18,687 nt of DNA from positions 1 through 18,687 of the forward strand of contig JANNVX010000044.1 in the NCBI GenBank assembly GCA_031414595.1, read 5' to 3'. The position numbers and the translations under genes are program-made. Of the stretch, positions 1 to 18,687 are shown one piece after another. How positions within the stretch are numbered: the first letter of the stretch is position 1; every line of letters starts with the position of its first letter. The notes beneath the pieces were generated by a model. It saw nothing but the letters and a program-made list of their open reading frames with translations, was not told the origin of the DNA and made no database searches. This DNA is from Deinococcales bacterium (GTDB lineage Bacteria; Deinococcota; Deinococci; Deinococcales; JAAFIG01).

Positions 1-111
1 CCATATCACTTGGCGACGAGTTTTTTCTTTGGCATCTTTGCACTGTTTGTAGTGTTTCTCGAGTTCTTCAGTCGTATGGTGGGCGGTTAGAGGTGTGCCT
101 AATCTTGACAT
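1..111 (-). CDS. IS630-family transposase N-terminus (partial, runs off the window)
   Basis: My translation from ATG at 111 (not in the ORF track) is MSRLGTPLTAHHTTEELEKHYKQCKDAKEKTRRQVIW. It resembles the 'H-L-S-x-EELExxY-R-x-x-KD-x-x-E-R-x-R-W-Q-x-IW' N-terminus of IS630 winged-helix transposases. Confidence 0.7.
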   Translation of the reverse strand, partial: MSRLGTPLTAHHTTEELEKHYKQCKDAKEKTRRQVIW

Positions 112-132
112 TCCTTATTATCTACCTAAAGT
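105..132 (+). promoter_or_regulatory. Putative outward-facing sigma70 promoter inside the IS end
   Basis: TTGACA (105-110), 16 nt, TAAAGT (127-132), pointing into the DUF4276 remnant and the helicase. Confidence 0.4.
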
Positions 133-137
133 TGGTA

Positions 138-758
138 TCAGGTAAAGTGCTGCTCGAGAAGCTGATTCCTAGGATTCTTGGAAATCAAGGCTCTCCTCAC
201 ACGTGGAATTTGCATTCATATAAAGGCATTGGGCGTATTCCACAGAACTTAAATCATCTTGCAGACCCTTCAAAACGAATTTTACTAGACCGATTACCGC
301 AAATTCTAAGGGGTTATGGTCAAACACCTGGTTATGATGCTGTTGTGGTTGTGCTGGACTCAGACCGTCGGAACTGCCAAGAGTTTTTAGAAGAATTAAA
401 AGACCTTTTACAGAATTCACAACCCGCACCACAAACCTTGTTTCGATTAGCCATAGAAGAAATGGAGGCTTGGTATTTTGGAGACCGAGCAGCCTTATTA
501 AAAGCCTATCCAAAAGCCAAAAAAGGTATTTTGGAAAAGTACAAGCAAGACAGTGTTTGTAGCACATGGGAATTGCTTGCCGATGCCATTCATGCTGGTG
601 GTTCGGCAGCCTTACCAAATTTTGCACTGGCTGGAAAAGCCAAAAACGAATGGGCAGAACGCATTGGTGAGCATATGTCGCTCGAGGAGAATCAATCACC
701 CAGTTTTATAAAATTTCGTGATGGTGTAAGACGCTTAATCAGTATGGCTAACTCATAA
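138..758 (+). pseudogene. DUF4276-family (TOPRIM/RloB-like) protein, N-terminally truncated by the IS insertion
   Basis: Motifs VVVVLDSD, LAIEEMEAWYFGD and N-x-SPSF are typical of DUF4276. The expected N-terminal hhVED motif before SG is replaced by IS-derived sequence. An in-frame GTG at 147 could restart a truncated product. Confidence 0.7.
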
Positions 759-766
759 GGACAATC

Positions 767-2827
767 ATGGAATTTCGCATTGCGGACACATTTACAGGTA
801 GCCTTGCTCGTTTGACCAGCGAAGAACAAAAAGCTGTTAAAACCACAGCTTTTGATTTGCAAATGAATCCATCAGCTACGGGTTTGCAATTTCATCGAAT
901 AGAAAAATCCAAAGACAAGCATTTTTGGTCAGTTCGAGTCAATGCCGATATTCGCTTAATTATCCATAAAACCAATTCGAGTTTGTTATTGTGCTACACC
1001 GACCATCACGATAAAGCCTATGCTTGGGCAGAACGCCGTAAGCTCGAGACGCACCCAAGAACAGGGGCAGCCCAACTTGTGGAAATCCGTGAACGAGTCG
1101 AGGAAATAGTTGTACCTAAATACGTTGAAGTCTCTGTTGCTGCAAAAAAATTATTTACCAAAATTTCGGATGATGAATTACTTGGCTTTGGTGTGCCAAT
1201 AGATTGGCTGTCTGATGTTCGTCATGCCACAGAAACCAGCTTGCTCGAGCTTACTGAATATTTACCTTTTGAAGCTGCCGAAGCGCTCTTGGAGCTTGCC
1301 ACTGGCAACACCCCGAAAGTTGCACCTGTGGTTGCTGGAAATCCGTTTGCACATCCAGATGCACTGCGTCGTTTCCGTGTCATGCAAGATGTCGAAGAAC
1401 TGAGCAAAGCCCTAGATTACCCGTGGGAAAAATGGATGGTTTTTTTGCACCCAGCGCAACGCCAATGGGTGGAACGAGATTACAGTGGTTCGGCTCGAGT
1501 TTCTGGTTCGGCTGGCACTGGAAAAACCGTGGTTGCTTTGCATCGGGCGGTGTACTTGGTTAAACAAAACATGGATACTCGAGTCTTACTGACCACATTT
1601 TCTAAACCTCTTGCCAGTGCCTTGTTTGATAAGTTACGGCTTTTAATTCGTTCAGAACCAATTCTTGCCGAAAGACTTGAGGTTCAAGCCTTGAACATTT
1701 GGGCAGAACGTTTTTATGCACCAAAATTTGGTAAACCCAATTTTGTTACAGATACTTGGTTGGTCGCACATTTATTTGATACCGCTCAAGCAGAAGGTTT
1801 GAAGTTCTCTAAACACTTTCTGATGTCTGAATGGTCAGAAATTATGGATGCTTGGCAACTCCAAACGTGGGAAGAATACCGTGATGTTAAACGCTTAGGT
1901 AGAAAAACCCGTTTATCAGAAATACAACGCACCAGTTTATGGGCTGTATTTATATCTGTAAAGCAACAACTTAAAGAAGCTAATCTAATCACTGCCGCAC
2001 AAATGTATAGTCGTCTCACCGAGCATTTTAAGAGCATAGACCATGCGCCATTTGACCATATTGTCATAGATGAAGCTCAAGACATTACTGTTTCGCAAAT
2101 GCGGTTTCTAGCCGTAATTGCAGGCAAAACCAATGGTTTATTTTTTGCTGGCGACCTTGGGCAACGTATTTTTCAAACACCCTTTTCTTGGAAAACAGTA
2201 GGAGTGGACATTCGTGGGCGTTCACGAACCCTATTTGTTAATTATCGCACCTCGCATCAAATCAGAATGCAAGCCGATCAATTACTCGAGCCTCAAATAG
2301 CAGATGTGGATGGAAATATCGAAGAACGCACAGGCACAATTTCGGTGTTCAACGGAACAGCACCACATATCGCCACCTTTACAAGTATGCTTCTCGAGCA
2401 GCAGGCAGTCTGTAAATGCTTACAAGAATTTATTGCCAAAGGGATAAAGCCGCATGAAATCGGTGTTTTTGTACGCTCAAACCTAGAATTGCCTCGAGCC
2501 AAAACTGCGATTCAACAAGCAGCATTACCTTTTAAGATTCTTGATGATAGTTTAGAATTAGCCACAGAAGAAATTTCGTTATGTACCATGCACCACGCCA
2601 AAGGACTCGAGTTTAAGGCAGTTATAGTCATGGCTTGCGATGATGAAATTATTCCTTCACAAGAACGCATTGCGAACGTGACTGACACAGCCGACCTTGA
2701 AGAAATCCACAATACAGAACGACACTTGCTGTATGTTGCTTGCACTCGAGCCAGAGATAAACTTTTTGTAAGTGGTGTCGAGCCAGTTTCCGAATTTCTG
2801 GCTGACCTGAGAATGCGATCATCTTAA
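767..2827 (+). CDS. UvrD/Rep-like superfamily I helicase with N-terminal RelE-like domain
   Basis: Walker A GSAGTGKT, Walker B IVIDEAQD, GDLGQRIF, NYRTS, TMHHAKGLEF, LLYVACTRAR. The first ~90 aa (F..SLARL...LQFHRI...FWSVRVNADIRLII) are RelE-fold-like. AAGGA Shine-Dalgarno upstream. Confidence 0.9.
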   Translation: MEFRIADTFTGSLARLTSEEQKAVKTTAFDLQMNPSATGLQFHRIEKSKDKHFWSVRVNADIRLIIHKTNSSLLLCYTDHHDKAYAWAERRKLETHPRTGAAQLVEIRERVEEIVVPKYVEVSVAAKKLFTKISDDELLGFGVPIDWLSDVRHATETSLLELTEYLPFEAAEALLELATGNTPKVAPVVAGNPFAHPDALRRFRVMQDVEELSKALDYPWEKWMVFLHPAQRQWVERDYSGSARVSGSAGTGKTVVALHRAVYLVKQNMDTRVLLTTFSKPLASALFDKLRLLIRSEPILAERLEVQALNIWAERFYAPKFGKPNFVTDTWLVAHLFDTAQAEGLKFSKHFLMSEWSEIMDAWQLQTWEEYRDVKRLGRKTRLSEIQRTSLWAVFISVKQQLKEANLITAAQMYSRLTEHFKSIDHAPFDHIVIDEAQDITVSQMRFLAVIAGKTNGLFFAGDLGQRIFQTPFSWKTVGVDIRGRSRTLFVNYRTSHQIRMQADQLLEPQIADVDGNIEERTGTISVFNGTAPHIATFTSMLLEQQAVCKCLQEFIAKGIKPHEIGVFVRSNLELPRAKTAIQQAALPFKILDDSLELATEEISLCTMHHAKGLEFKAVIVMACDDEIIPSQERIANVTDTADLEEIHNTERHLLYVACTRARDKLFVSGVEPVSEFLADLRMRSS

Positions 2828-2962
2828 TTTCAATTGGACACTCATGCCATTTCTCGAGACGGAATGTGTCCCGAGTTCGTTTACTTATCTTTGACAGTAG
2901 TCAAACTTTAGTTTGTGAAGTATTTGGCGGACTTTGTTGTTTTACTGACGCATAATGATTTT

Positions 2963-4549
2963 ATGAATCTGACTCGAGTTATTCCACTGGTTCTTATTTC
3001 GGTCGCGGCACTTGGGGCTTGCGGTTCAACCCCACTGCCCGAAATTCCTATTCGTATTTCAAGCGAGGGTGTGACCCACCCGACCAACCTTGCACCGACA
3101 CTGGTACAGCGTTTTTACATCACCAATGAAAGTAAACGCGAAAAAGAAATTCGTCTCGAGCCGAGTTATCGCGGCTTAAAGTACCAACCGCGTAACGTGG
3201 CGTACACAGGTTATGCAGGCTGGGATGGTTTGGTTGTGCCTCGGTCTGATTCGGCTCGAGCCGACTGGCTAACCGTTAAACTCAACCGTGCTGCCACAGT
3301 GGTCGTGGCTTGGAAACTCAGCGCCCCGTGGTTAGCCGATTGGACAGCCAGTTCCGAAATCGCTGGTGGCTATAAAACCTATAAAAAATCTTTTGCGGCT
3401 GGGGATGTTAAGTTGCCCAGTCCTGGCAAAAGCAACGAAGCCTACGAAGTATTGTTTGCCGAAAGCAACGGACAGCCATCAGTTGCGCCCATTTTAGCGC
3501 CGCAAGCTCCGGCTGGGGCAGCTTTGCCACAAGCCAATCAAACTTGCCCAGATTGGTTGCATCATTTGTACGAAGTGACTGGGCGTGATGGCAACAAGTA
3601 CGATTCTTGGCATCCGCAAATAGACCCCGTGTACTGGTGTTATTTTCGGCACGAACACGGTTCTGACCCTGCTTTAATTGGCTATAACGGTGCAGCCCTC
3701 GAGTATGTGGCAAAACTTTTTGGTGACCAAGCCGAAATCCACGAAGGTTTTAAGAGCTTTGTGATTCGTGATGAAACGACGGGCGTGGGTTGGTACATCA
3801 ATGTTCATGCCGAAACGGGTTTTGAACACCGTGTTTGTACCCAAAACCATACGGTGGTGATTGCGGCGGTTGGCTTAAAAGACACCGCTACCTTTGCCAG
3901 TGGTGAGTTACTCGCCGAACTGGGTTTCAAAGGTGATTTTGGGGCAAGCATCACCAATAATCAGATGGGCGGCAAAAACTTTGTGATTCAAAAAACCACG
4001 CTGCAAGGTGGTGTCTGTGCCAACCAACAAGCCATTTTTGATACCACCCAGACCGCAAAATCCAAAGCTGCAAAACGTATTCGCGTAGCTGCCGACGGCT
4101 TTGGAAACAATGGCTACGAAGGCTGGGACGGCGGGATTCAAAAAGAACTTGGTTTTAGTTTCCCCGATTGGAACGCGGGAATTGCAATAGATATTCGCAA
4201 CCCAAGCACGGCTTGCGCCACCCTCGAGTGTAGCGCTTTGGTACGCAATAAAAACGACCACGGTGACGAACGCACAATTTCGATGCGTGGCTTAAAATTG
4301 GCATACCGAAAAATACTCGATGAAGTCAATGGCTCAGCCGCCGATGGCGTGTTTTACACCAATTTATACGGCACAGTACCTTTTGACACCAATGGCGCGG
4401 GGCGAATCCGGCAATTTGTCAAACCTAACTTAAACCTGACCTTACCAGATGGTTTTTTCACCACCGAGGATGCTTGGCGTGGGTTGTACGTCAAAGATGG
4501 CAGCGTGCCACGCACCGAACTCGAGGATGCACTGGGCGAAATCAATTAA
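2963..4549 (+). CDS. Large lipoprotein of unknown function (Cys/His-rich motif)
   Basis: Start revised to ATG 2963 (CATAAT 6 nt upstream). Signal peptide MNLTRVIPLVLISVAALGAC with lipobox LGAC; internal WHPQIDPVYWCYFRHEHGSDP motif. Confidence 0.75.
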   Translation: MNLTRVIPLVLISVAALGACGSTPLPEIPIRISSEGVTHPTNLAPTLVQRFYITNESKREKEIRLEPSYRGLKYQPRNVAYTGYAGWDGLVVPRSDSARADWLTVKLNRAATVVVAWKLSAPWLADWTASSEIAGGYKTYKKSFAAGDVKLPSPGKSNEAYEVLFAESNGQPSVAPILAPQAPAGAALPQANQTCPDWLHHLYEVTGRDGNKYDSWHPQIDPVYWCYFRHEHGSDPALIGYNGAALEYVAKLFGDQAEIHEGFKSFVIRDETTGVGWYINVHAETGFEHRVCTQNHTVVIAAVGLKDTATFASGELLAELGFKGDFGASITNNQMGGKNFVIQKTTLQGGVCANQQAIFDTTQTAKSKAAKRIRVAADGFGNNGYEGWDGGIQKELGFSFPDWNAGIAIDIRNPSTACATLECSALVRNKNDHGDERTISMRGLKLAYRKILDEVNGSAADGVFYTNLYGTVPFDTNGAGRIRQFVKPNLNLTLPDGFFTTEDAWRGLYVKDGSVPRTELEDALGEIN

Positions 4550-4560
4550 GGCTCGAGAAT

Positions 4561-4592
4561 AAAAAAAGGACTGCACTTAGCAGTCCTTTTTT
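4561..4592. terminator. Bidirectional rho-independent terminator
   Basis: AAAAAAAGGACTGC-ACTTA-GCAGTCCTTTTTT: a perfect stem with A and T tracts on both sides, between convergent genes. Confidence 0.9.
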
Positions 4593-4602
4593 GATGCTAT
4601 TT

Positions 4603-4650
4603 TATGGGGCTGGCGGCACAGTCCACTATGGGGCTGGTGGTACAGTCCAC
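4603..4650. repeat. Tandem 24-bp duplication of the 3' end of the 4626-5054 gene
   Basis: TATGGGGCTGGCGGCACAGTCCAC followed by TATGGGGCTGGTGGTACAGTCCAC; both encode WTVPPAP-stop on the minus strand. Confidence 0.9.
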
Positions 4651-5054
4651 TGAAATTTAACCGTCACACCATTAGAAACCACTGGGTTATTGTTCGTGTC
4701 CAAAGCCTGACCGTTGACATAAAAATACGGTTTGTCATTGGTGGCGTTTTGCGGCACAGTCACGGTAATGTCAGCACTGGTGTTGCCCGTTAAAGTAAAG
4801 TCCTTGGGGTCTATTTCTACGCCACTCGAGCCAGAGATACTGATTTTTACTTTCTTAGCCGCAGGGGATAATAGTTTAGAGCTAATACTGACGATTTGAT
4901 TTGTCCCTCGAGCCACAAAAAAATCTGTTGATTTAGGAGGTTTAGGGTTGGTCTCGAGTTGAATCAGGTCGGTTGGTACTTCGACAATTGGCGTGACTGG
5001 TTTAGGCGTGCTTTGACAAGCCATTAAAATCGGTAAAAGCCATAAATAACGCAT
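4626..5054 (-). CDS. Small lipoprotein, probable Ig-like beta-sandwich
   Basis: MRYLWLLPILMAC lipoprotein signal, Pro-rich linker and beta-rich C-terminus. TAGACT -10 lies 6 nt before the ATG. Confidence 0.75.
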   Translation of the reverse strand: MRYLWLLPILMACQSTPKPVTPIVEVPTDLIQLETNPKPPKSTDFFVARGTNQIVSISSKLLSPAAKKVKISISGSSGVEIDPKDFTLTGNTSADITVTVPQNATNDKPYFYVNGQALDTNNNPVVSNGVTVKFQWTVPPAP

Positions 5055-5103
5055 AAACCAAGTCTACTCGAGGAATTGTTTTTTGGCTGTGTGGTTTTTC
5101 GCC

Positions 5104-6465
5104 TTATTTGACGCTAGAAATCGCTTGGCTACCACCGCAATCCCGTCCCAGACGGGCAATGGCTCGAGCCTCGGGGTTTGGATTGGTGTTCTCTACTGGG
5201 ACAGTCCAAACCAATGGATTACCACTCGAGATAATTCCTTCGCTAAACAGTTCGGTAGCGCTGGTGCTGATGGTGTTTGGTAAATCCAGTTCGGCTCTGG
5301 CTGGAATACCGTAAGGGAACAAGGTCGAAACCGTGATCGTCAGTTCTGAATTGCGGTCAATTGGCTTTGGGCTTAGAACAATGCGTTGCAACACAACATA
5401 TTCCACGGTGATTTCGGTGGTTTGGTCTTGAATTGCTACAGCTTTAATCGGACGAATCCATGCTCCGGGTAAACTCAGGGCTTGGATATTGACTACTCCG
5501 GCTGATACTGCCACGCTATCGCCTGTTTTGATACTTGTGCCGTTGACTTTGATTTCAAGGCTGGGCAAATCAGTTCTCGAGCCACACGAAACTGCTACGG
5601 CTTTAACAATTAAATTGGTGGGTGATTGAAAACCGGGCAAAATGGTGTACAGCGCTTCATCGCCTAAACGAACCCGAATGCTAAAGGAATTGGAAAATTG
5701 TTTGGTGCTGGCGACTGTTCGTGCCACCACCCGCCAACGCCCAAGCAGTGCCTCGGTCATCGGAATATCATCGCTTGCCCATTGACCATCCAAAGAAGAA
5801 GTCAGTGGACGGCTTGCGCCGTCTGGGGTGACTAAACTCAGTGCCATTTCCTCGAGACCGTCGGCATCGTAATTGCCAAGTCGGATGGTTTTACCCAAGG
5901 CACTGTTCGGCACATCAATAAAACCGACCAATTGGTCTTGGTTGGCTTCGCCACGCAAATTGACTGTGAATTCGCTGGCTTCAAGCCGCACATTATTAGA
6001 AGCCCGAACTGCAAAAGCGTTTTTGCCATTGCCCTTGGATTCAACTTGGAATTTATAATTGCCCGGACGTAAAACCCCAGCATAGAAACGCTGCAAATCG
6101 TGTTGTTCGCCCACTCCAAAAGTACGCCGCGCCAAAACTCGTCCACTTGATTCACGCAGCGTAAAAGTGGTTTTCAAGTCTGGATTCTGCCCGTATAATT
6201 CATCACCAAAATACGCCCCTGTATTGCGATTGGTGGTCAGGTCAGCTTTATTGGTTTCAGGGCTAAAAATCTCCACCACGGTACGAACCAAATTTGTGCC
6301 GGAGACCACCAAGCGGTAATCCTCGAGACCAAAACCAGCGCTGACCTCATTACCCACCGAGACCAAAGGCAGGGCGACTTGACGCACCTCAAAAGCTGGA
6401 TTGTCTTGCGCCCAAGCCGTACTGCCGCACAGGGCTGCCAATAAAATTAAAGATATTTTTTTCAT
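5104..6465 (-). CDS. Secreted/surface protein resembling N-terminal regions of Deinococcus DUF11-type proteins
   Basis: Sec signal MKKISLILLAALCGSTAWAQ; motifs LPLVSVG, GDELYG, TTFTL, GNGKNAF. TAGGCT -10 lies 7 nt upstream of ATG 6465. The family call is from memory. Confidence 0.6.
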   Translation of the reverse strand: MKKISLILLAALCGSTAWAQDNPAFEVRQVALPLVSVGNEVSAGFGLEDYRLVVSGTNLVRTVVEIFSPETNKADLTTNRNTGAYFGDELYGQNPDLKTTFTLRESSGRVLARRTFGVGEQHDLQRFYAGVLRPGNYKFQVESKGNGKNAFAVRASNNVRLEASEFTVNLRGEANQDQLVGFIDVPNSALGKTIRLGNYDADGLEEMALSLVTPDGASRPLTSSLDGQWASDDIPMTEALLGRWRVVARTVASTKQFSNSFSIRVRLGDEALYTILPGFQSPTNLIVKAVAVSCGSRTDLPSLEIKVNGTSIKTGDSVAVSAGVVNIQALSLPGAWIRPIKAVAIQDQTTEITVEYVVLQRIVLSPKPIDRNSELTITVSTLFPYGIPARAELDLPNTISTSATELFSEGIISSGNPLVWTVPVENTNPNPEARAIARLGRDCGGSQAISSVK

Positions 6466-11087: not shown

Positions 11088-11122
11088 GGAAACCTATTCT
11101 AATCAAAATTGGCTTGCAATTG

Positions 11123-11324
11123 CACGAATCAAAAACATGGGCATAACCAAATCTTTTACACCAAGCGAACTCGAACGTACCTTCAAAGCCGAACTTCTGG
11201 CTCGAGACGCGGGGACTTTAAGCGCCAAGCGCGGGAAGCTCGAGGCAAAAGCCTGAGTAAATTAGGTTTGGAACTGGGCATCAGCAAAGGCAGGGTGCAT
11301 CAGCGTGAGCCGAAGCACTCGAGT
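11123..11324 (+). pseudogene. Eroded paralog of the HTH antitoxin at 12547-12918
   Basis: Aligns to the 12547-12918 gene (TPSELERTFKAELLAR..., RQAREARGKSLSKLG.ELGISKGRVHQRE) with a frameshift near 11220 and several internal deletions. Confidence 0.88.
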
Positions 11325-11376
11325 AAAGCGTGGTAAAATTTTGTGTGTTGCCCTGTGCTAAACGCCAAGGCTCGAG
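11325..11376 (+). repeat. 52-bp direct repeat, copy A
   Basis: AAAGCGTGGTAAAATTTTGTGTGTTGCCCTGTGCTAAACGCCAAGGCTCGAG. Confidence 0.9.
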
Positions 11377-11387
11377 CTAAAACAAAT

Positions 11388-11663
11388 TTACACCAAGCGA
11401 ATCTCGAGACGTTTACCAAGGGCAATCGCGGCTCGCTCGAGGGTTTGCAAAGTTGCACTTTGATTATTTGGATCGAGCAAACGGTCAAGGGCAGCACGAC
11501 TGGTATTCATGCGTTTAGCCAATTCAGTCTTACTGAGTTTCTTGGATTCTAAAGTTTCTAAAAGCTGATAAGCAATCACTCGTTTTATCGCTAAGGCTTC
11601 GGCATCAGCAAGAATACCTTCCTCGAGTAAAAAATCATCGAAATTACTGCCAATGTGTTTCAT
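11388..11663 (-). CDS. XRE-family HTH antitoxin (HigA-like)
   Basis: HIGSNFDDFL...KRVIAYQL...SKTELAKRMNTSRAALDRLLDP...TLQTLERAA; ATGA overlap with the upstream toxin. Confidence 0.9.
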   Translation of the reverse strand: MKHIGSNFDDFLLEEGILADAEALAIKRVIAYQLLETLESKKLSKTELAKRMNTSRAALDRLLDPNNQSATLQTLERAAIALGKRLEIRLV

Positions 11664-12028
11664 GGGTTCTCCAATAATTCTTTGAGGCGTTTACGAGCAA
11701 GCTCAAGGTCTGACTTTGGTGTTTTCTGGCTTTTTTTGATAAAAGCATGAAGCAGAATCATTTGGTTGTTCTGCACTGTAAAAATAGTTCTGGCAATCCC
11801 AGTGCTGATATGAGAGCGAACTTCCCATAAATCAGGCTCGAGTTTTCTGACCAAAGGCATTCCAATTGGATAAGCAAATTGCACGGTTTTAATATCTTCG
11901 CCAATGGTTCGGCGCATCTCGAGGCTTTGGGCTTTTAGCCAATCACGGACGGGTTCTTTATTGCTGCTTGTGTGATAAAAGAAAACCAGTAGGACAGGCT
12001 CGAGTTGAGGTCTGGGCTGGTTTAACAC
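11660..12028 (-). CDS. Type II TA toxin, RelE/ParE superfamily (Gp49/HigB-like)
   Basis: FY.T...EPVRDWLK...IGEDIKTVQ...PIGMPLVRKL..DLWEVRS...ILLHAFIKKSQKTP; extended -10 TGGTACACT 6 nt before the GTG. Confidence 0.92.
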   Translation of the reverse strand: MLNQPRPQLEPVLLVFFYHTSSNKEPVRDWLKAQSLEMRRTIGEDIKTVQFAYPIGMPLVRKLEPDLWEVRSHISTGIARTIFTVQNNQMILLHAFIKKSQKTPKSDLELARKRLKELLENP

Positions 12029-12079
12029 AATTAAAGTGTACCAAAAAAGATACGATTTGCCAAGGGAGCAACGCTCGAG

Positions 12080-12131
12080 AAAGCGTAATGGGATTTTGTG
12101 TGCAACCCTGTGCTAAATGCCAAGGCTCGAG
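12080..12131 (+). repeat. 52-bp direct repeat, copy B
   Basis: AAAGCGTAATGGGATTTTGTGTGCAACCCTGTGCTAAATGCCAAGGCTCGAG. Confidence 0.9.
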
Positions 12132-12146
12132 CCTTGGTGAACTTGC

Positions 12147-12175
12147 TTGACAATGATAATCGTCTAGTCTAAGCT
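12147..12175 (+). promoter_or_regulatory. Leaderless sigma70 promoter of the second TA operon
   Basis: TTGACA, 17 nt, TAAGCT, 6 nt, ATG (12182). Confidence 0.75.
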
Positions 12176-12181
12176 ATACTA

Positions 12182-12550
12182 ATGCGGCTATACCTTGCCC
12201 GACACCCAGACCAAATAACCAGCAAGCACCCACGAATCATTGAAGATATGCTTGAGCTTTGCGAACACCATCAGCTTGCTGTGAACGCCATGATTGGAAT
12301 GCTCGAAGATTTATTCGAGTTTGATCTCAAAACCAGATACGCTAAAAAGCTAATGGATTACCCGCTTTGGGAACTGAAAACCCGTTCTCGAGGCGGCGAA
12401 AAAGGCGGAGCAAGAGTCTATTTCTTTGTCGAAAACAACATTGCTTATATTTGCAATGCCGAAGTCAAAACAGGAAGCGAACCAAGCGAACACAAACTCG
12501 AAGAAGCCCTAGAAATTCTAGTCGCACATCGCGCTGGGAGGACAATATGA
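12182..12550 (+). CDS. Type II TA toxin, RelE/ParE superfamily (HigB-like)
   Basis: YAKKL...PLWELK...GGARVYFF RelE-like core; toxin-first order with an ATGA overlap to the HTH gene. Confidence 0.75.
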   Translation: MRLYLARHPDQITSKHPRIIEDMLELCEHHQLAVNAMIGMLEDLFEFDLKTRYAKKLMDYPLWELKTRSRGGEKGGARVYFFVENNIAYICNAEVKTGSEPSEHKLEEALEILVAHRAGRTI

Positions 12551-12918
12551 ACCCACGAATCAAAGCCATGCTCGAGACATTTACGCCCGAAGAAATCCGC
12601 ACTGGAATTCTTGAGAATAAACAAAGTAAAACAGTTCTAACAACCACACCAAGCGAACTCGAACGTACTTTCAAAGCTGAATTACTGGCTCGAAATGCTG
12701 GGGCATTACTACGCCAAGCGCGGGAAGCTCGAGGCAAAAGCCTGAGTAAATTAGGCTCGGAGCTTGGCATCAGCAAAGGCAGGGTGCATCAGCGCGAACA
12801 AGCCAGTGCGAACTTAGAAATCAAAACGATTCTCGAGCAAGCCGAAGCACTCGAGTACGAAGTTGAATTGGTGTTAAGACCAAAGCAAGGTGGGCAGGAA
12901 ATACGAGCGTTGCTGTAA
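12547..12918 (+). CDS. XRE-family HTH antitoxin
   Basis: Start revised to ATG 12547 (ATGA coupling, GGAGG Shine-Dalgarno). LRQAREARGKSLSKLGSELGISKGRVHQRE...NLEIKTI...AEAL HTH. Confidence 0.85.
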   Translation: MNPRIKAMLETFTPEEIRTGILENKQSKTVLTTTPSELERTFKAELLARNAGALLRQAREARGKSLSKLGSELGISKGRVHQREQASANLEIKTILEQAEALEYEVELVLRPKQGGQEIRALL

Positions 12919-12931
12919 AATGCGTTTCAGT

Positions 12932-12982
12932 AAAGCGTGATAGGATTTGTGTGTAGCCCTGTGCTAAACGCTAAGGCTCGAG
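12932..12982 (+). repeat. 52-bp direct repeat family, copy C (51 bp)
   Basis: AAAGCGTGATAGGATTTGTGTGTAGCCCTGTGCTAAACGCTAAGGCTCGAG. Confidence 0.9.
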
Positions 12983-13123
12983 GCAGATTGAATTTTGACC
13001 ACATTGCAATGTTTGATAAACTCTTCGACTTGCACATCTTAAACGTACCTCTACTTTTCAGCAAGATACTTGCAGACGTGTTAAAGTAACTGCAAAAGTT
13101 CTAAACCCATGGGAGTATGACTG

Positions 13124-14161
13124 GTGCAGCGACATACACATTTATATAATTTTGTTGAGATTCTTGTATTTTTCCTTGGGGCTGTTATAGTTTTCCTTCC
13201 CTTGGAATCAAAAACGCCCATCTCTGTGTTTCTGGGGACTACACTTGAAGACATTGGTACAGCCTTAGTAGCTGCCGCTCCTGTTAGTTGGGTCACTCGC
13301 AACTGGAAATTGCGAAGTCTTTACATAGGCATTGCGAGTCTCATTCCCTTCGTACTAGCAAATCTTATCTTATTTCCTAAAGATTTAGAAGCAATTAAAA
13401 AGATTCTAATTAATCTCGCGGGTGGATTGTTGCTTCTCGCAATTTATAACTTCATTTTGGATAAATTATTACTCAATGATGGAACACTGCGAATAAATGC
13501 CATTCAGCGACGAAGAATGGATGAACAGTACCGACAGATGAAAGTGGGAGCAAGGTATAAAATCTATATACTTGCTACAAGTCTCAATGATTCAATTAAC
13601 GATTTCCTTCGGGATACAAAATTATTTAAGAATATAACAGATTCAGATTTGTCCTTAGATATTAGATTGGTTTTTGTTAGTCCCAACTCTGAAGTTATTA
13701 AGGATAGAGCAAGAGAGGATGGTCGAAGTGAGTCAATTATCAAAGGAAGAATAAATTCTACAATAAAAAAATCAGTTCTTTTATATGACCGCATTATTAA
13801 ATTAATGGAGCAAGGAAAAAAAAGCAATTCAACTATCTCGGTAAAAATTACAAATGTTCACCCACTACATAGTTTGGTAATTATAGATGATAAACCTATC
13901 CATTGGACTGTTCATACGTTATCAAAAAATGAAACACTCGAATCTGTTATTTCTGTCCCACTCGATAATGACCCTGTGTATACGGATTTTTTGCGTCATT
14001 TTGATAGTGTTTGGTCTGATCCTTCAACAGTAAAAGTGTTTGAAATTGACCTAAAAAGTAAAGCCCATAAACTTGAGGAAGAATTACTAAATTCTTTGTA
14101 CTCGATTACTCCAAATTTTGACGGAAAATGGAGAAATACTGTTAAAAAATTCCCTGACTGA
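13124..14161 (+). CDS. Membrane protein (3-4 N-terminal TM helices) with DUF5919/PLD-like C-terminal domain
   Basis: Hydrophobic residues ~10-115. The C-terminus KIYILATSL...IRLVFVSPNS...RARED...SLVIIDD...FLRHFDSVW resembles DUF5919. GGAG Shine-Dalgarno 8 nt before the GTG; markedly AT-rich. Confidence 0.6.
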   Translation: MQRHTHLYNFVEILVFFLGAVIVFLPLESKTPISVFLGTTLEDIGTALVAAAPVSWVTRNWKLRSLYIGIASLIPFVLANLILFPKDLEAIKKILINLAGGLLLLAIYNFILDKLLLNDGTLRINAIQRRRMDEQYRQMKVGARYKIYILATSLNDSINDFLRDTKLFKNITDSDLSLDIRLVFVSPNSEVIKDRAREDGRSESIIKGRINSTIKKSVLLYDRIIKLMEQGKKSNSTISVKITNVHPLHSLVIIDDKPIHWTVHTLSKNETLESVISVPLDNDPVYTDFLRHFDSVWSDPSTVKVFEIDLKSKAHKLEEELLNSLYSITPNFDGKWRNTVKKFPD

Positions 14162-14181
14162 TATGAGTACGGAAAAATCTT

Positions 14182-15339
14182 ATGCTTAAATCTCTTTCTC
14201 TTTTCAGTGGTTGTGGCGGCTTGGATAGCGGTGTCTTCCAAGCTGGCTTCACGCCATTGGCTCTTGCCGAAATAGACCCTCATGCCACCAAAACCTTGTC
14301 GCATTGGCTCGAGCAAAAGGGCTTAAACATTCCTATTTTCTCGGATGTTACGCAACTAAATCCTTTTAGCCTACTCGAGCAACTGGGCTTACAAGTCGGT
14401 GAACTCGATTTGCTGTTGGGTGGTTCGCCCTGCCAGTCGTACAGCCTGATTGGTCAGCGTGCATCTCTCGAGGATGAGCGTGGGCAGTTACTCTTTGAAT
14501 TCGTGCGTTTGGCTCGAGTGCTACAACCCAAGGTAATTCTGATGGAGCAAGTTAAGGGTTTGCTTAGTGCGCCGGGCTTGGCTGGTGAGCGTGGTGGGGC
14601 GTTGGCGGTGCTGATGTCTAAACTCGAGGAGATTGGGTATACCGTGCGTTTTCAGGTTTTGAATACGGCTCATTTTGGTGTGCCGCAACTTCGGGAGCGC
14701 TTGTTTTTGGTGGCTGCTCAGGCTGCTTTTGTTTTTCCCGAACCCACCCATACCAGCAATGATTCACTCTTTGGTTTACCGCCATTTAGAACTGTTTGGG
14801 ATGCAATTGCCGATTTACCCGCACCAACGTTGAAGGGCGAACCTGAGCGCTTTCCAAATCACGTGGATGTTACCCCTGCTCGAGACCGTGAACGTATTTT
14901 TCATGTTCCTGAAGGTGATTTCTTGGCGCGGCAGTTTCATTTGCCCGAAGATATTCGTTGTAAGCTCAATCCCAAGAAGGACACCACAAAATTTAGGCGG
15001 TTGTCGCGTTTTCTGCCCAGTTTAACCTTGCGTGGTGGTGAATCGCCGTATCATCCGCTCGAGCCTCGGTACATTACGCCGCGTGAGTCTTTGCGTTTGC
15101 ATGGTTTTTTGGATGATCATATTTTAATTGCGCCAATTCGTGGGCGTTCTGGTACGTTCAATGGTTTAGACCAGCATCGTTTGGTGGCGAATGCTGTGCC
15201 GCCGCCACTTGCTTTTGCGCTTGCCAGTGCGATTAAAGCTCAATTTTTGACTGAATCTCGAGCAGAGGCGCTTTTCGCAGCATTGCCTTTAAGAGTTCCT
15301 TTTTTGGTGGAATCTTTTTCGGTAGCAAAATCCCTGTAA
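14182..15339 (+). CDS. DNA (cytosine-5)-methyltransferase
   Basis: Motif I LFSGCGG, IV GGSPCQ, VI MEQV (variant of ENV), VIII PQLRERLF, IX RYITPRE..RL.GF, X NAVPP. Confidence 0.93.
   Translation: MLKSLSLFSGCGGLDSGVFQAGFTPLALAEIDPHATKTLSHWLEQKGLNIPIFSDVTQLNPFSLLEQLGLQVGELDLLLGGSPCQSYSLIGQRASLEDERGQLLFEFVRLARVLQPKVILMEQVKGLLSAPGLAGERGGALAVLMSKLEEIGYTVRFQVLNTAHFGVPQLRERLFLVAAQAAFVFPEPTHTSNDSLFGLPPFRTVWDAIADLPAPTLKGEPERFPNHVDVTPARDRERIFHVPEGDFLARQFHLPEDIRCKLNPKKDTTKFRRLSRFLPSLTLRGGESPYHPLEPRYITPRESLRLHGFLDDHILIAPIRGRSGTFNGLDQHRLVANAVPPPLAFALASAIKAQFLTESRAEALFAALPLRVPFLVESFSVAKSL
14281..14316 (+). repeat. 36-bp direct repeat, copy inside the MTase gene
   Basis: CATGCCACCAAAACCTTGTCGCATTGGCTCGAGCAA; 34/36 identical to 16308-16343. 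Confidence 0.9.
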
Positions 15340-16288
15340 AAGTGGGGTTGCTGCCCGTAAACGATAGCCCTGCCTTGCCTGTGATGCGGCTAATCGTGCT
15401 GGTTTCGCCTGTGCTGCTGTCTATCGCAAAAATAATCAGGTGGATGTTGTTTTGTGTGCTGCTTTCTTGGTTTCCAATGGCTTGGCTCGAGAGTTGAGTA
15501 GTGGATTCGATTTCGCTCAGGAATTGGTCTTGGAGTAACCAGAAGGTTTTGCCGCCCCAGCTTTCGGCACAGGCAGATTTGGCAAAGAGTTGAGTTGCCA
15601 TGCGTCCCCAGACTTGGCGTTTGTTAATGCTGGGTGTGCTGTGTGGCAAGCCTAGAATAGCTTTTTTGAAAGCACTGGAAATATCTGTGCCTTTACTTTT
15701 GTTTGAGCCAGAGGTGCTGGCAGTCATGACCTCAAGAATTGCAAATGGCTCGAGAGTGGGAACTAAAACCATATTATTTATGGCTCGAATTCGCAGTTGT
15801 CTTTGTAAATCTGGTTCATCTGGGAAAATGGTTTTGATTTCCTCGAGCGTTAGCTTTTGCACTGGCGAGATGACATAATCAAAGTGATAGTTAAAACTGC
15901 TGTCCTCGTCGCGCATATTGATGACGACTTCTGCCCAAATGCCAAGCGGCACATCTGGCAAGTTCATTTGTTCTATGGCGGCTTGTTCGTGTGGCAATAA
16001 GTTTTTTTGGTCGTCACGGACAGCAAATAATCGTCTTGGGCAAACCAACCATGTTTCATCTTCGGATTGAATCGAACAAATTCCGGGTATCACTTGCTTG
16101 AGGTTAGGAAAATAATTTTGTAAGGCTTGGCTTTCGTTTTGTAAGGCAATCGTGGTTTGGTAACGATTTCCACCACCATCACAAGCTGTGTTGCTAAAAG
16201 GACAGTGTGCCTCATGACGTAATCTTTTGGCTTCGGCGGATTGGTCATGCAGTGGTCTGCCGAAAAGTTCAAAGATTTGTTTGGGCAT
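15233..16288 (-). CDS. NotI-family type II restriction endonuclease
   Basis: IFELFG start; four Cys of the NotI metal-binding module (CPF...C, GICSI, VCPRR); FDYV and ILEVMT PD-(D/E)xK-like core; adjacent to a C5 MTase. Start revised to ATG 16288 (TAAACT 5 nt upstream). Confidence 0.78.
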   Translation of the reverse strand: MPKQIFELFGRPLHDQSAEAKRLRHEAHCPFSNTACDGGGNRYQTTIALQNESQALQNYFPNLKQVIPGICSIQSEDETWLVCPRRLFAVRDDQKNLLPHEQAAIEQMNLPDVPLGIWAEVVINMRDEDSSFNYHFDYVISPVQKLTLEEIKTIFPDEPDLQRQLRIRAINNMVLVPTLEPFAILEVMTASTSGSNKSKGTDISSAFKKAILGLPHSTPSINKRQVWGRMATQLFAKSACAESWGGKTFWLLQDQFLSEIESTTQLSSQAIGNQESSTQNNIHLIIFAIDSSTGETSTISRITGKAGLSFTGSNPTFTGILLPKKIPPKKELLKAMLRKAPLLEIQSKIEL

Positions 16289-16307
16289 AGACCAGTTTAC
16301 ATTTTTC

Positions 16308-16343
16308 CATGCCACCAAAACCTTTTTGCATTGGCTCGAGCAA
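16308..16343 (+). repeat. 36-bp direct repeat, copy upstream of the REase gene
   Basis: CATGCCACCAAAACCTTTTTGCATTGGCTCGAGCAA. Confidence 0.9.
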
Positions 16344-16402
16344 GCATATTCTCGAGAGCAAATTCTTTTTGTTCCCTTCTGCTTTAACTCGAGACGAAAG
16401 CC

Positions 16403-17032
16403 TTAAACCCCGCCCAGCAGTGGAATATCTAACCCTCTTGCCTCGAGTTGCCCACAAATCCAGCCGAGGGCATACCTGTCTTCAATAAAGTCTAGCTCGT
16501 CACCCGGAATGGTAATGACGGGTGAGAGGCTGTACTCCCGCATGAATTGGCTGTAGAGGTCGTTCAAACCCACCAAGTACGCTTCGGGGATGCGCTGCTC
16601 GTAATCTCGTCCACGTCCAGCAATTCGTTTTTGTAGGGTTTTCAGACTGCATTTAATGTAAACCGTTAAAGTCGGAACACGAAGCGCGGGGGCAATCCCA
16701 GCATATAAATTTTGGTAGGTCTGCCAATCGCGGTCATCAATATGCCCTTGTTGCCGCAAATTGGTAGCAAAAATCGCCGCATCTTCAAATACGGTTCGGT
16801 CTTGAATCACCCGTGAACCTGTGTTGACTTCGCGTAAGTGCTGCTCGAGTCGTTTGCCCAAAAAAAAGACTTGTGAATGAAAAGCAAAACGCTTCATGTC
16901 CAAGTAAAAATCCTCGAGATACGGGTTTTCGTCCACCGCTTCAAAAATTGGCGTGAGCGCATAGCGTTCTGCCAGTAATTTGGTCAGGCTCGATTTGCCA
17001 CTTCCGATGTTTCCAGCAATTGCAATGTACAT
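16403..17032 (-). CDS. Deoxynucleoside kinase (dCK/dAK/dGK family)
   Basis: P-loop GNIGSGKS, ENPYLEDFY, QDRTVFED, RIAGRGR.YE. Confidence 0.93.
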   Translation of the reverse strand: MYIAIAGNIGSGKSSLTKLLAERYALTPIFEAVDENPYLEDFYLDMKRFAFHSQVFFLGKRLEQHLREVNTGSRVIQDRTVFEDAAIFATNLRQQGHIDDRDWQTYQNLYAGIAPALRVPTLTVYIKCSLKTLQKRIAGRGRDYEQRIPEAYLVGLNDLYSQFMREYSLSPVITIPGDELDFIEDRYALGWICGQLEARGLDIPLLGGV

Positions 17033-17038
17033 ATAATT

Positions 17039-17635
17039 TTACCTGCCTAGTACCTTTCGTACCTGCTCGAGAACCCGTTGTTGGTCAAATAAATTCTCGA
17101 CATAATCGTACTCGAGGGCTTCCAAGGTCAGGACGTTTCCAGTGTAGGAACGAAAATAGGCTTCGTAATGGGTATTTAGGGTTTTTAAGTAATTGGGGTC
17201 TATGTTCTTCTCAAACTCGCGTCCGCGTTTGGCGATTCGCTCGAGCAGCAAGGGCGTTTCGGCTCTTAGGTAAATAATCAGGTCTGGGATTCGCAATTGC
17301 GGTTTTAAGTGGTTGTAGAGGTCTTTGTAAAGCTCAAACTCGGCATCGCGTAAGTTCATGCTGGCAAAGATAAAATCTTTGTCAAATAAATAATCGGAGA
17401 CCACGGCTGCATCAAACAGGCTTTGTTGGGCTAAGCTGGAGAGTTGCTTAAACCGACTGAGTAGAAAAAATGTTTGCACATTAAAAGAAAAACGCTCTGG
17501 GTTTTCGTAAAAAGCTGCCAGAAAAGGATTTTCTTCAACCACTTCAAGATTCAAAGCCGCCGCAAATTCAGCCGCCAAGATACGACATAGACTGGTCTTA
17601 CCGACACCAATTGCACCTTCAACAACAATGTACAC
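17039..17635 (-). CDS. Deoxynucleoside kinase (dGK-like paralog)
   Basis: P-loop GAIGVGKT, EENPFL..FY, SDYLFDKD, RIAKRGREFE. Confidence 0.93.
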   Translation of the reverse strand: MYIVVEGAIGVGKTSLCRILAAEFAAALNLEVVEENPFLAAFYENPERFSFNVQTFFLLSRFKQLSSLAQQSLFDAAVVSDYLFDKDFIFASMNLRDAEFELYKDLYNHLKPQLRIPDLIIYLRAETPLLLERIAKRGREFEKNIDPNYLKTLNTHYEAYFRSYTGNVLTLEALEYDYVENLFDQQRVLEQVRKVLGR

Positions 17636-17656
17636 AAATACCCTCGAGACAATTAC

Positions 17657-17683
17657 AAGGCGTGACTTTAACAGCCACGCCTC
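17657..17683 (-). terminator. Hairpin downstream of acpP (weak terminator/attenuator)
   Basis: Minus strand GAGGCGTGGCT-GTTAA-AGTCACGCCTT; poor U-tract. Confidence 0.55.
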
Positions 17684-17700
17684 TTGCAGACAAAATTTTT

Positions 17701-17937
17701 TTAACCTTGTTTTGAACTGATAAACGCAACTGCATCTTGGACAGTCCGAATTTTTTCAGCTTCGTCATCGGCAATGGTTAAACCGAATTTGTCTTCGAGA
17801 CCCATGATTAACTCGACTGTTTCAAGACTATCAGCCCCAAGGTCATCCACAAAAGATGCTTCAAGAACCACTTTATCAGCGTCAACAGAGAGTTTTTCAA
17901 CGATTACTTCTTTCACTTGAGCGAAAATATCAGCCAT
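17701..17937 (-). CDS. acpP: Acyl carrier protein
   Basis: 78 aa, acidic, with the [12 protein letters not shown] phosphopantetheine-Ser motif. Confidence 0.97.
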
Positions 17938-18054
17938 AAGAAAGCGACTTTACCATAAGAATATCAGGTTAGGGTAGATGGCAAACAGCAAAAGCCTCCA
18001 AAATGTGCTAAGGCGCTCTGCTCGAGAACGGTATCCAAATCTATTGTTTAAGTA

Positions 18055-18093
18055 TTGTAAAAAAAATGTCTATGAATTATGCTTCTAACAGGA
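18055..18093 (+). promoter_or_regulatory. Promoter with overlapping RDRM-like operator
   Basis: TTGTAA, 17 nt, TATGCT. The 17-mer TTATGCTTCTAACAGGA (18077-18093) resembles the Deinococcus DdrO-binding RDRM. Confidence 0.4.
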
Positions 18094-18101
18094 GAAATTC
18101 T

Positions 18102-18548
18102 ATGCCATACCCAGCCAAAGAATACGCCGAAGCCTTTATCAAACACCGCCTACCCTTGCTGGCATTACTCGAGAGAATCCCAGTTGAACACAGTGGCTTT
18201 GCAATTCGTGAAGGCGCACTGAGTCTGCTCGAGATGGTCAATCATTTGTACTTAACCGATGTCTATTTACTAAGCGTCCTGAGTGGCGAGAAGTTTGTAC
18301 CACCCGCACCAGCCCCAGACTTAAGCAGTGCTTTGGTTGCCTTTAAGGTCAGTACGCCAAAAGTTCAAGCCTTTTTAGAGAATTTAAGTCCAGACCAACT
18401 CAGCCAAGACATCAAAGCCTTTGGTCAAACTTGGAAGGCGTACCGTTTAATCGAATTTGGACGCGAACACGAAGCCCACCATAAAGGACAACTGTGGTTC
18501 ATGGCTCGAGCCATAGGAATAGAACCCCCAATGTTCTATCAGTTCTAG
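18102..18548 (+). CDS. DinB/YfiT-family four-helix metalloprotein
   Basis: His triad (VNHL...EHEAHHKGQL). Start revised to ATG 18102 after a GGAG Shine-Dalgarno. Confidence 0.88.
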   Translation: MPYPAKEYAEAFIKHRLPLLALLERIPVEHSGFAIREGALSLLEMVNHLYLTDVYLLSVLSGEKFVPPAPAPDLSSALVAFKVSTPKVQAFLENLSPDQLSQDIKAFGQTWKAYRLIEFGREHEAHHKGQLWFMARAIGIEPPMFYQF

Positions 18549-18678: not shown

Positions 18679-18687
18679 TGTGACCAA

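Follow-up and report, generated by a model that had tools for sequence, protein, structure and literature searches.

CTCGAG as a highly iterated palindrome in an uncultured family of Deinococcales

The closest described counterpart of the element analysed here is HIP1 of cyanobacteria (GCGATCGC, with variants such as GGGATCCC), the original highly iterated palindrome (HIP). In the accessible parts of the literature, HIP1 is described as 15- to 300-fold over-represented, as raising natural transformation with an effect that depends on methylation, and as a proposed uptake sequence. For three decades HIP1 has been recorded from a single phylum, and a connection between its function and transformation is only beginning to emerge. 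Other dense, lineage-specific words are the uptake signal sequences (USS) of Pasteurellaceae and the DNA uptake sequences (DUS) of Neisseriaceae, which accumulate through point substitutions by transmission bias, shape peptides, are evenly spaced and are missing from imported DNA. The USS and DUS are 9-12 nt long, asymmetric and present about once per kb; they are read by competence proteins, and their biased uptake is established experimentally. In Escherichia coli, very short patch (VSP) repair by Dcm/Vsr exerts a bias at a methylated palindrome that raises the target word, by a few fold and through one transition only. The present analysis concerns the hexamer CTCGAG in a stretch of 18,687 nt (the window, meaning the whole of the DNA analysed), which is contig C44 of the 4.49-Mb assembly of a Deinococcales bacterium (genome G000; 120 contigs, 47.2% GC). 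An earlier inspection of the window (the original prediction) had proposed that CTCGAG behaves as a HIP enriched about 25-fold. The comparisons below indicate that CTCGAG is almost certainly a genuine HIP of an uncultured Deinococcales family, maintained by a selection-like fixation bias for the exact word.

The window contains exactly 97 copies of CTCGAG, the number that an approximate hand count had given, with the first site at 58-63 and the last at 18505-18510:

58..18510, no strand: 97 dispersed copies of the exact hexamer CTCGAG, 5.2 per kb

In 200 dinucleotide-preserving shuffles of the window, the mean is 2.21 copies (standard deviation 1.34, maximum 6), and 0 of 200 reach 97. The figure of about 25-fold is right and, if anything, low, base composition predicting about 4 copies and the shuffles 2.2. 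With genes taken from the open reading frames (ORFs) called for this analysis, 80 of the 97 sites lie within genes and 17 outside. Those within genes read CTC-GAG (Leu-Glu) in 50 cases, nCT-CGA-Gnn in 20 and nnC-TCG-AGn in 10, in agreement with the earlier statement that all three reading frames are used, and the nine sites previously assigned to spacers (2853, 4552, 5067, 6492, 16335, 16351, 16388, 17643 and 18021) all fall outside called genes.

The enrichment extends throughout the genome and the family and is not confined to the window. G000 carries 23,235 copies (5.2 per kb, about one per 190 bases), making CTCGAG the commonest hexamer of all, at 23.9 times the frequency expected from base composition. 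All 105 contigs longer than 5 kb hold between 2.55 and 8.59 copies per kb (median 5.13), and in the source family (f1, five genera) 19 of 19 genomes carry 4.3-6.8 per kb. Genome-wide, the flanks of the sites are near-uniform, each base having a frequency of 0.17-0.30 at positions -10 to +10, and palindromic extension beyond the hexamer stays at chance level; the unit is therefore the hexamer alone. The AvaI-type relatives CCCGAG (980) and CTCGGG (950) occur at expectation, as approximately do CTCGAA, ATCGAA and similar words, and outside CTCGAG the tetramer TCGA has ordinary or low counts (ATCGAA 1,421, TTCGAA 29, ATCGAT 89, GTCGAC 26). The copies are dispersed single sites made by point substitutions, and do not constitute a repeat or a mobile element. 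A maximal-order Markov expectation, which returns an observed-to-expected ratio (O/E) of only 1.16, was rejected as a test of enrichment; it is circular because 90% of the CTCGA and TCGAG pentamers sit inside CTCGAG.

Beside this one hyper-abundant palindrome, many others are nearly absent from G000: TGCGCA (2 copies), CGATCG (3), GGCGCC (3), GACGTC (3), CGCGCG (3), AGGCCT (4), GAGCTC (6), GTGCAC (6), ATGCAT (14) and GGCC (152). The non-palindromic pair ATCGAC/GTCGAT is also low (63/59). The near-absence of so many palindromes points to intense restriction pressure.

Within the 4,010 genes called genome-wide by a crude ORF and codon-likelihood method (89.6% of the genome), coding DNA holds 20,853 sites at 5.19 per kb, about the density of the spacers (2,469 sites, 5.29 per kb). 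Shuffling synonymous codons within each gene (20 replicates), which keeps the protein and the codon usage, both already inflated by CTCGAG, yields 2,037 coding sites; shuffling codon order (20 replicates) yields 947. By frame (0/1/2), the coding sites number 12,524/4,044/4,285 against 1,359/412/266 in the synonymous shuffles. The codon pair CTC-GAG is expected 482 times from codon frequencies. Outside Leu-Glu pairs, CTC makes up 8.0% of Leu codons and GAG 19.9% of Glu codons, values from which 331 CTC-GAG pairs are predicted against the 12,524 observed. A dicodon-preserving model, which is circular for frame 0, still leaves an excess of 1.7- to 2.1-fold (4,044 vs 2,334 in frame 1 and 4,285 vs 2,014 in frame 2), and intergenic DNA contains 2,450 sites where shuffles contain 80 ± 9 (31-fold). 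The earlier contention that codon bias alone does not explain CTCGAG is borne out under codon, protein and dicodon controls as well as in the spacers.

An origin as a passive by-product, whether of codon or dicodon usage, of a context-dependent mutational bias or of CTC-GAG pairs surviving from a high-GC ancestor, is extremely improbable on these figures. It would agree with the predominance of frame 0 (Leu-Glu), which accounts for 60% of coding sites, with the low Markov ratio, circular as that ratio is, and with the state of other families of the order, whose loci have 58-67% GC, in which CTC and GAG are common, and among which genus g9 has about 0.9 sites per kb with the reversed word equally frequent. 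It does not accommodate spacers enriched 31-fold, protein-preserving shuffles with tenfold fewer sites, or the distance between 331 predicted and 12,524 observed codon pairs, and a mutational bias would neither slow the loss of sites four- to fivefold nor space them evenly.

Comparison with relatives reveals how the sites behave over time. For the same-genus genome G003, 400 kb were aligned to G000; high-scoring segment pairs (HSPs) below 300 bp or overlapping others were dropped, and the 143 of 169 that were kept cover 251 kb at 78.4% identity. In this alignment, 1,080 of 1,385 G000 sites are kept (78%) compared with 31% of all hexamer windows, which places CTCGAG first in conservation among the 969 words with at least 100 occurrences. 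Conservation by frame is 77.6, 76.0 and 78.8%, and in spacers it reaches 62 of 73 sites against a baseline of 35%. Counted from the G003 side, 1,080 of 1,645 sites are common to both genomes. In the closer relative G001 (HSPs below 400 bp or 84% identity dropped, 64 kept, 129 kb at 92.4% identity), 652 of 720 sites are common (90.6%, vs 68.0% of all hexamers), and the sites unique to either side are balanced (68 vs 82). For the window alone, comparisons with five genomes find 70-89% of CTCGAG common.

Codons are conserved far more inside the motif than outside it (CTC 83/38%, GAG 85/39%, CGA 81/38%, TCG 83/50%). Words with one mismatch are conserved in only 117 of 670 cases (17.5%), compared with 31% for all hexamers and 26.8% for 17 other palindromes, and for 38-41% of the words of the CTCAAG and CTCGAA types the other genome has a complete CTCGAG at the aligned position, against 3.5% for a generic transition neighbour. 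Across the genome, the transition neighbours of CTCGAG stand at an O/E of 1.07-1.23 and the transversion neighbours at 0.17-0.69; the former remain at expectation because the huge pool of CTCGAG feeds them. Of the sites not shared with G003, 272, 280, 230 and 88 differ at one, two, three and at least four positions. The conservation, codon, near-cognate and turnover data together support the active, sequence-specific force postulated in the original prediction, one by which sites are both preserved and created. Since all six positions are protected, near-cognates are pulled in, every resident compartment is affected and very close neighbours are disfavoured, codon usage, a high-GC relic and a simple mutational bias are excluded.

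The slower loss of CTCGAG is a plain pattern in both alignments, and its rate would be four to five times below that of ordinary hexamers, the relative values being ln(0.78)/ln(0.31) = 0.21 and ln(0.906)/ln(0.68) = 0.26. When the fixation model S/(e^S - 1) is set to this relative loss rate, a scaled advantage S of about 2.5 per site is suggested. The preponderance of CTCGAG over each transition neighbour, about 20:1 (23,235 vs 1,154 CTTGAG and 1,171 CTCAAG), suggests, under unbiased mutation, an S of about 3. These independent measures agree on about 2.5-3 per site, within a two-state model in which average hexamers serve as the neutral yardstick.

The pressure for the word also shows in the proteome. 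Of all CTC codons 52%, and of all GAG codons 47%, lie inside CTCGAG, and Leu-Glu is the most over-represented dipeptide (20,871 vs 9,408 expected, O/E 2.22), compared with 0.98 for Glu-Leu, 0.72 for Val-Glu and 0.53 for Met-Glu. Synonymous opportunities for the hexamer are filled to 60% in frame 0, 47% in frame 1 and 37% in frame 2. Codon choice has been rewritten by the pressure for CTCGAG, as have Leu-Glu dipeptides, whose number would amount to roughly 11,000. The same can be followed in a single protein, RpoB, aligned from G000, four relatives and five outgroups of the other four families, with 10 CTCGAG inside the gene. Five of these sites use a Leu-Glu found in at least four of the five outgroups; one lies on an Ala-Arg-Asp identical in all five, where no residue change is needed; one lies on an Ile-Ser-Ser common to two of the five; and three require residues seen in none of the five. 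The three are (i) Leu-Glu in place of Ile-Pro/Ile-Asn, common to all five family members, (ii) Ala-Arg-Val in place of an otherwise invariant Leu-Arg-Val, and (iii) Leu-Glu in a variable segment.

The rpoB loci L002, L004, L008, L009 and L015, whose RpoB proteins are 85-100% identical, range from 47 to 60% GC, and each carries 8-13 CTCGAG in the gene frame. As these sites are kept across that range, the motif persists through a large shift in GC within the group.

Structural RNA genes are resistant to the word, though not immune to it: the 68 tRNA genes contain 7 CTCGAG, where 27.5 are expected. Five of these seven are located in one array on contig C56 (144-2945), where at least five tRNA genes (Ser, Ser, Cys, Thr, Glu) are packed within 3 kb, four of them with an encoded CCA, and where the sites occupy the acceptor, D, variable and T-stem regions. 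The cluster may be mobile or phage-derived.

Along the genome, the gaps between sites have an overall coefficient of variation (CV) of 0.99, and counts in 1-kb bins have a variance-to-mean ratio of 1.01. These values mask two opposing features, an even bulk and a heavy tail. In the bulk, sites are distributed more evenly than chance predicts (gamma shape 1.4-1.5): gaps of 6-25 bp occur at 0.61 of expectation (1,294 vs 2,119), those of 50-200 bp at 1.19-1.22 and those of 500-1000 bp at 0.68-0.79. As a control, ordinary frequent hexamers thinned to equal density cluster, with a CV of 1.18. Density does not change across gene starts and is slightly higher immediately after stop codons.

The tail consists of 42 gaps longer than 1.5 kb where 9 are expected, mostly of 31-42% GC, and 28 genes of at least 900 bp lack CTCGAG where 4.5 would be expected to. 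The site-poor gaps encode accessory functions, among them a 4.9-kb polysaccharide-synthesis stretch and a clostripain/PIN stretch, and the three contigs above 10 kb that are poorest in sites harbour a copper/redox island, a type III-B (Cmr) CRISPR cassette and patatin/SIR2 genes. Imported DNA arrives without CTCGAG. In these genomes the density of the motif is a sharp marker of native versus imported DNA, and it is a constraint when DNA is designed for them.

Very close pairs form a separate observation. Exactly adjacent sites (gap 6) number 0 in the genome; their junction would form GAGCTC, one of the avoided words. With a single base between the two sites (CTCGAGNCTCGAG, 7 bp apart), 101 pairs occur, compared with 17-20 for gaps of 8 and 9. 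A repeat family was considered for these pairs and ruled out, their flanks being unique. Several of them lie in long hairpins beside T-runs, an arrangement in which a site in either arm entails a second one in the opposite arm.

Even spacing and the deficit of pairs closer than 25 bp are what a protein footprint would give, and they bear on the proposal that the sites form a binding array for an abundant dimeric nucleoid-associated or chromosome-organising protein, with selection acting on local density and not on transmission. This proposal fits the equal frequency of sites in genes and spacers, with a flat profile over gene starts and ends, and likewise the strong, frame-independent conservation; the accessible text of Xu et al. 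(2018) arrives at the same reading for HIP1 from conservation and a 10-90-kb periodicity. No candidate protein has emerged, placing a site every 190 bp and altering about 11,000 dipeptides is a costly way to serve a structural role, and the model alone does not explain sister families that drive the same word to depletion. A binding array is accordingly regarded as clearly unlikely.

The order-wide distribution was surveyed in 151 genomes, with densities computed from rounded genome sizes. Outside the source family, the following values were obtained; G037 and G147 are single-contig genomes of other families, represented by 200-kb samples in which gene calls are rough at high GC:

Family f5, genus g9, 22 genomes: about 0.6-1.1 sites per kb, equal to the reversed word
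Family f5, genera g13, g22 and g24, 13 genomes: 1.4-3.4 sites per kb
Family f2, 37 genomes: 0.3-2.6 sites per kb
Family f4, 23 genomes: 0.7-2.9 sites per kb
Family f3, genus g7, 35 genomes: 37-942 sites per genome, strong depletion
G037 (f5, g13), 63.8% GC: 2.46 sites per kb; spacers 58 vs 7.0 in shuffles; Leu-Glu O/E 1.43; frames 377/27/30 vs 120/2.2/8.5 in synonymous shuffles
G147 (f2, g36), 61.1% GC: 1.94 sites per kb; spacers 85 vs 11.2 in shuffles; Leu-Glu O/E 1.18; frames 205/43/57 vs 84.5/3.1/13.3 in synonymous shuffles

The enrichment in sister families amounts to about 7- to 8-fold in genus g13, spacers included, and to about 8-fold in G037 and G147. Because the spacers of these two high-GC genomes exceed shuffles about 8-fold, high-GC codon usage does not explain their moderate enrichment, which is the same phenomenon; this again speaks against a passive by-product. 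The CTCGAG trait is graded across the order and is not confined to one family. The gradient (20-fold, 8-fold, strong depletion) offers a natural comparative series in which phylogenetic profiling could point to the responsible gene.

At the low end of the gradient, depletion is present in all 35 sampled g7 genomes (for example G014, G092 and G124), which measure 1.9-4.8 Mb. The rpoB gene of G014 encodes nine Leu-Glu pairs and contains zero CTCGAG. No XhoI-family endonuclease was found in this genus.

That one word is so abundant in f1 (4.3-6.8 per kb) and so scarce in g7 (37-942 sites per genome), two groups of a single order, raises the idea of an origin in conflict: either a nuclease defence would spare DNA dense in CTCGAG, perhaps in modified form, or saturation with the site would block the establishment of an XhoI-type restriction-modification (R-M) system. 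XhoI-type systems do exist in the order, and other palindromes are avoided, GAGCTC having 0-25 copies in 16 of 19 f1 genomes (114-568 in the other three) and GGCC 152 in G000. As no candidate system was identified and foreign site-free islands persist in the genome, such an origin is judged very unlikely.

A resident, probably orphan, CTCGAG methyltransferase was among the mechanisms raised by the original prediction, and it is also the one that Elhai proposed for HIP1. Such an enzyme would mark the sites, which methyl-directed mismatch repair, VSP-type repair or an epigenetic role would then preserve and enrich. A 6-bp palindrome is the typical target of a Type II enzyme, and XhoI-type R-M circulates in the order, the endonuclease family (Pfam PF04555) being present in 6 of 151 genomes; in one of them, G025, the XhoI-family endonuclease adjoins a 583-aa methyltransferase of the TaqI class. 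G000 is itself rich in methyltransferases (9 N6_N4, 5 C5, 10 N6_Mtase, 8 Eco57I and 1 D12 matches), and the near-absence of many other palindromes from it is a sign of heavy R-M pressure. For HIP1, the accessible part of Elhai (2015) describes CGATCG methyltransferases as almost coextensive with the motif, with exceptions.

The gene content of the family points the other way. The survey covered Pfam Eco57I in the 151 genomes, the Pfam families N6_N4, C5, N6_Mtase and D12 in five family genomes, and individual protein probes. The XhoI endonuclease (PF04555) is found in 0 of 19 family genomes, and so is any close homolog of the XhoI-linked methyltransferase of G025, whose best match in these genomes has 26-27% identity. 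Its close homologs (43-60% identity) occur in eight other genomes, of families f2, f4 and f5, and within genus g13, where 4 of 10 genomes have the enzyme, motif density is no higher in those that do. Among the N6_N4, C5, N6_Mtase and D12 families, only the gamma class and D12 are represented in all five family genomes; the single-contig genome G033 has 0 N6_N4 matches and G010 has 0 C5 matches. In local BLAST searches against G000 proteins, the C5 and D12 enzymes of G033 are only 33% and 26% identical to the nearest protein, and the C5 enzyme of G006 is shared within the genus only. When methyltransferases of G000 are used as probes across the 19 family genomes, a 663-aa gamma enzyme is detected in 3, a TaqI-like enzyme (contig C89) in 4 and a 1,272-aa Type IIG-like enzyme in 6. 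The anticipated orphan XhoI/PaeR7I-like methyltransferase co-occurring with the enrichment was consequently not recovered: none is conserved across the family with the five Pfam families and five protein probes used, a negative that leaves MT-A70 and other families outside the search and includes several incomplete metagenome-assembled genomes. It is limited further in that specificity is unreadable from sequence and non-orthologous enzymes could share one specificity, so that the sites are not thereby shown to be unmethylated.

The repair component fares no better. Vsr was not found in any of the 19 family genomes, and CTTGAG/CTCAAG, at an O/E of 1.07, show no depletion. In tests of METHYLTRANSFERASE and the repair reading, divergence is flat with distance from a common site (0.061-0.081 over 1-640 bp), although no base is more than a few hundred bp from a site, which makes the test weak. 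With no XhoI, no close XhoI-linked methyltransferase, no Vsr and no family-wide methyltransferase recovered, and with divergence flat, the link to methylation or methyl-directed repair drawn in the original prediction is not supported, and a role of this kind is considered unlikely.

The explanation preferred here, with a probability of roughly 40%, is that CTCGAG acts, by analogy with known systems, as a 'self' tag read in DNA uptake and/or homologous recombination. A putative dimeric protein would read the palindrome during these processes, between cells or between genome copies, and alleles carrying CTCGAG would be transmitted preferentially. This would be a form of molecular drive from which the cell might benefit as well. 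Participation of a methyltransferase is possible, though none conserved across the family was found. The self tag is preferred because biased transmission exerts an S-like pressure on tens of thousands of sites without requiring that every one of them matter to the cell, and because evenness and peptide reshaping are traits of uptake sequences. It is further preferred because of the reported effect of HIP1 on transformation and its proposed role in uptake. ComEC and DprA are each present in five of five family genomes, and the same searches match 10 and 11 of 14 control genomes; their presence is required by the self tag but discriminates weakly.

Several points weigh against the self tag, beginning with this near-universality of the competence genes. 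The reader protein is hypothetical, with no candidate identified, and its preference in binding or transformation would be expected only by analogy. Known uptake sequences are non-palindromic words of 9-12 nt with a frequency near one per kb; for a hexamer at 5 per kb, density would be the only basis of discrimination, and as a typical fragment has 20-50 sites, the marginal gain from one more should be small. The transformation effect of HIP1 needs methylation, yet no conserved methyltransferase was found in the family. Conservation and evenness would be equally expected for binding sites selected for a cellular function, and the estimates of S carry the simplifications of their two-state model and neutral yardstick. 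Lastly, viral contigs screened for clusters of three sites in about 100 bp gave at least 128 stretches, of which 80 were considered; these have 52-74% GC, almost all 62-74%, and none with at least 3.5 sites per kb lies below 55% GC, a result that is uninformative on the phages of a 47%-GC lineage.

A more specific version, a self-DNA recognition system in Deinococcales whose putative dimeric reader would favour motif alleles in uptake, in recombination or in conversion between polyploid copies, is somewhat doubtful. Were it true, the same reader logic with opposite sign would explain the purge of the word from one sister genus, the lineage, given a trait graded across the order and enriched about 8-fold in complete genomes of other families, would be an independent and possibly tractable system for the 30-year-old HIP puzzle, and HIPs would be a general bacterial phenomenon and not a cyanobacterial oddity. 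In order of preference, the self tag is followed by a methylase-linked role and then by a binding array for a chromosome organiser.

Within the window, several local features accompany the sites:

1..141, no strand: terminal multi-copy repeat containing site 58; 17 other copies at 99-100% identity
7888..7902, no strand: CTCGAG pair 9 bp apart (7888, 7897) inside a thioesterase gene
12983..14307, no strand: site-free stretch of 1.3 kb, about 41% GC in its 2-kb bin
14182..15339, plus strand: C5 cytosine DNA methyltransferase gene with 8 CTCGAG, 6.9 per kb
16335..16393, no strand: three CTCGAG (16335, 16351, 16388) within 59 bp of one intergenic spacer, not a hairpin

The site-free stretch contains a 345-aa ORF (13124-14161) that matches no known family and is absent from five same-genus genomes; because of this absence, the stretch has probably been imported recently. 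The adjoining C5 methyltransferase gene has a long match in only one of the five same-genus genomes (G007). Being patchy among relatives, it is therefore not the cause of a family-wide trait.

Both genes fall in or near a slot of variable cargo at 11158-14309, of which a paralogous copy exists on contig C70. The copy is 92-93% identical over toxin-antitoxin-like genes (Gp49/HTH, 11158-12969) and over the first 135 bp of the C5 methylase gene (14175-14309). The DNA between these conserved parts differs, comprising 1.2 kb in the window, with the 345-aa ORF and no CTCGAG, versus 2.7 kb on C70.

The original prediction had also placed some sites inside an insertion sequence (IS). Pfam and NCBIfam searches give no transposase match for any window ORF, so this statement is not verified; the repeat at 1-141 is the only candidate for the element, and site 58 is the only CTCGAG of the window inside a multi-copy repeat. 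The right end (18546-18687) is likewise a multi-copy repeat, with about 60 full or partial copies, and its 82-bp core (18603-18681) has tens of copies in same-genus genomes too and looks like a miniature inverted-repeat transposable element (MITE) or an IS end. The two terminal repeats (1-141 and 18546-18687) broke the assembly, since most of their copies lie at contig ends.

The left end of the window (3-2827) looks like a defence island. Its DUF4276 protein matches the PADLOC candidate system HEC-01B (E 4e-84), the partner of which would fall beyond the contig end, and the gene that follows encodes a 686-aa UvrD-type helicase resembling GajB/NERD-UvrD, with a weak HigB-like match at the N-terminus.

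Set against known systems, CTCGAG is first of all the recognition site of XhoI, and its depletion in g7 resembles the usual avoidance of a restriction target, here that of XhoI/PaeR7I-type R-M. The source family departs from such avoidance with a 24-fold enrichment, and the endonuclease and a close methylase are found in 0 of its 19 genomes. It departs equally from a VSP skew in its 24-fold excess, in the protection of all six positions, in the undepleted CTTGAG/CTCAAG and in the finding of Vsr in 0 of 19 genomes. The resemblance to USS and DUS is closer: CTCGAG is dense in genes and spacers, fairly even, peptide-shaping and missing from imported DNA, and competence genes are present. Unlike those words, it is a 6-bp palindrome at 5 per kb, and its receptor is only hypothetical.

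The closest resemblance is to HIP1. Both are exact palindromes in many-fold excess throughout a lineage, in all reading frames and in non-coding DNA, and in both cases related lineages carry a weaker version or none. As in the accessible part of Xu et al., sites are conserved above control palindromes, and codons are conserved more inside the motif than outside. The differences are as marked. CTCGAG is a hexamer in Deinococcota and HIP1 an octamer in Cyanobacteria, and CTCGAG has no flanking extension. At 4.3-6.8 per kb, it is two to ten times denser than HIP1, for which Table 2 of Elhai, as far as it is accessible, gives 0.3-2.7 per kb. One-mismatch words of CTCGAG are conserved below controls, whereas HIP1* is conserved above them in the portion of Xu et al. 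available. No conserved methyltransferase was found here, whereas HIP1 is, in the accessible descriptions, nearly coextensive with orphan GATC and CGATCG methyltransferases.

A literature search, with subscription journals and supplements outside its scope, found no published report of CTCGAG enrichment, and the accessible part of Elhai (2015) on HIP1 makes no mention of CTCGAG, Deinococcus or Thermus. In conclusion, CTCGAG is a second, independently arisen HIP in another phylum, built on a different, shorter and denser word. Because this second HIP uses another word and has no obvious conserved methyltransferase, it separates the general features of HIPs from the cyanobacterial ones. Conservation, frame independence, reshaping of the proteome and absence from imported DNA belong to the general features, and the orphan GATC/CGATCG methylases and the conservation of near-cognates are maybe peculiar to cyanobacteria.

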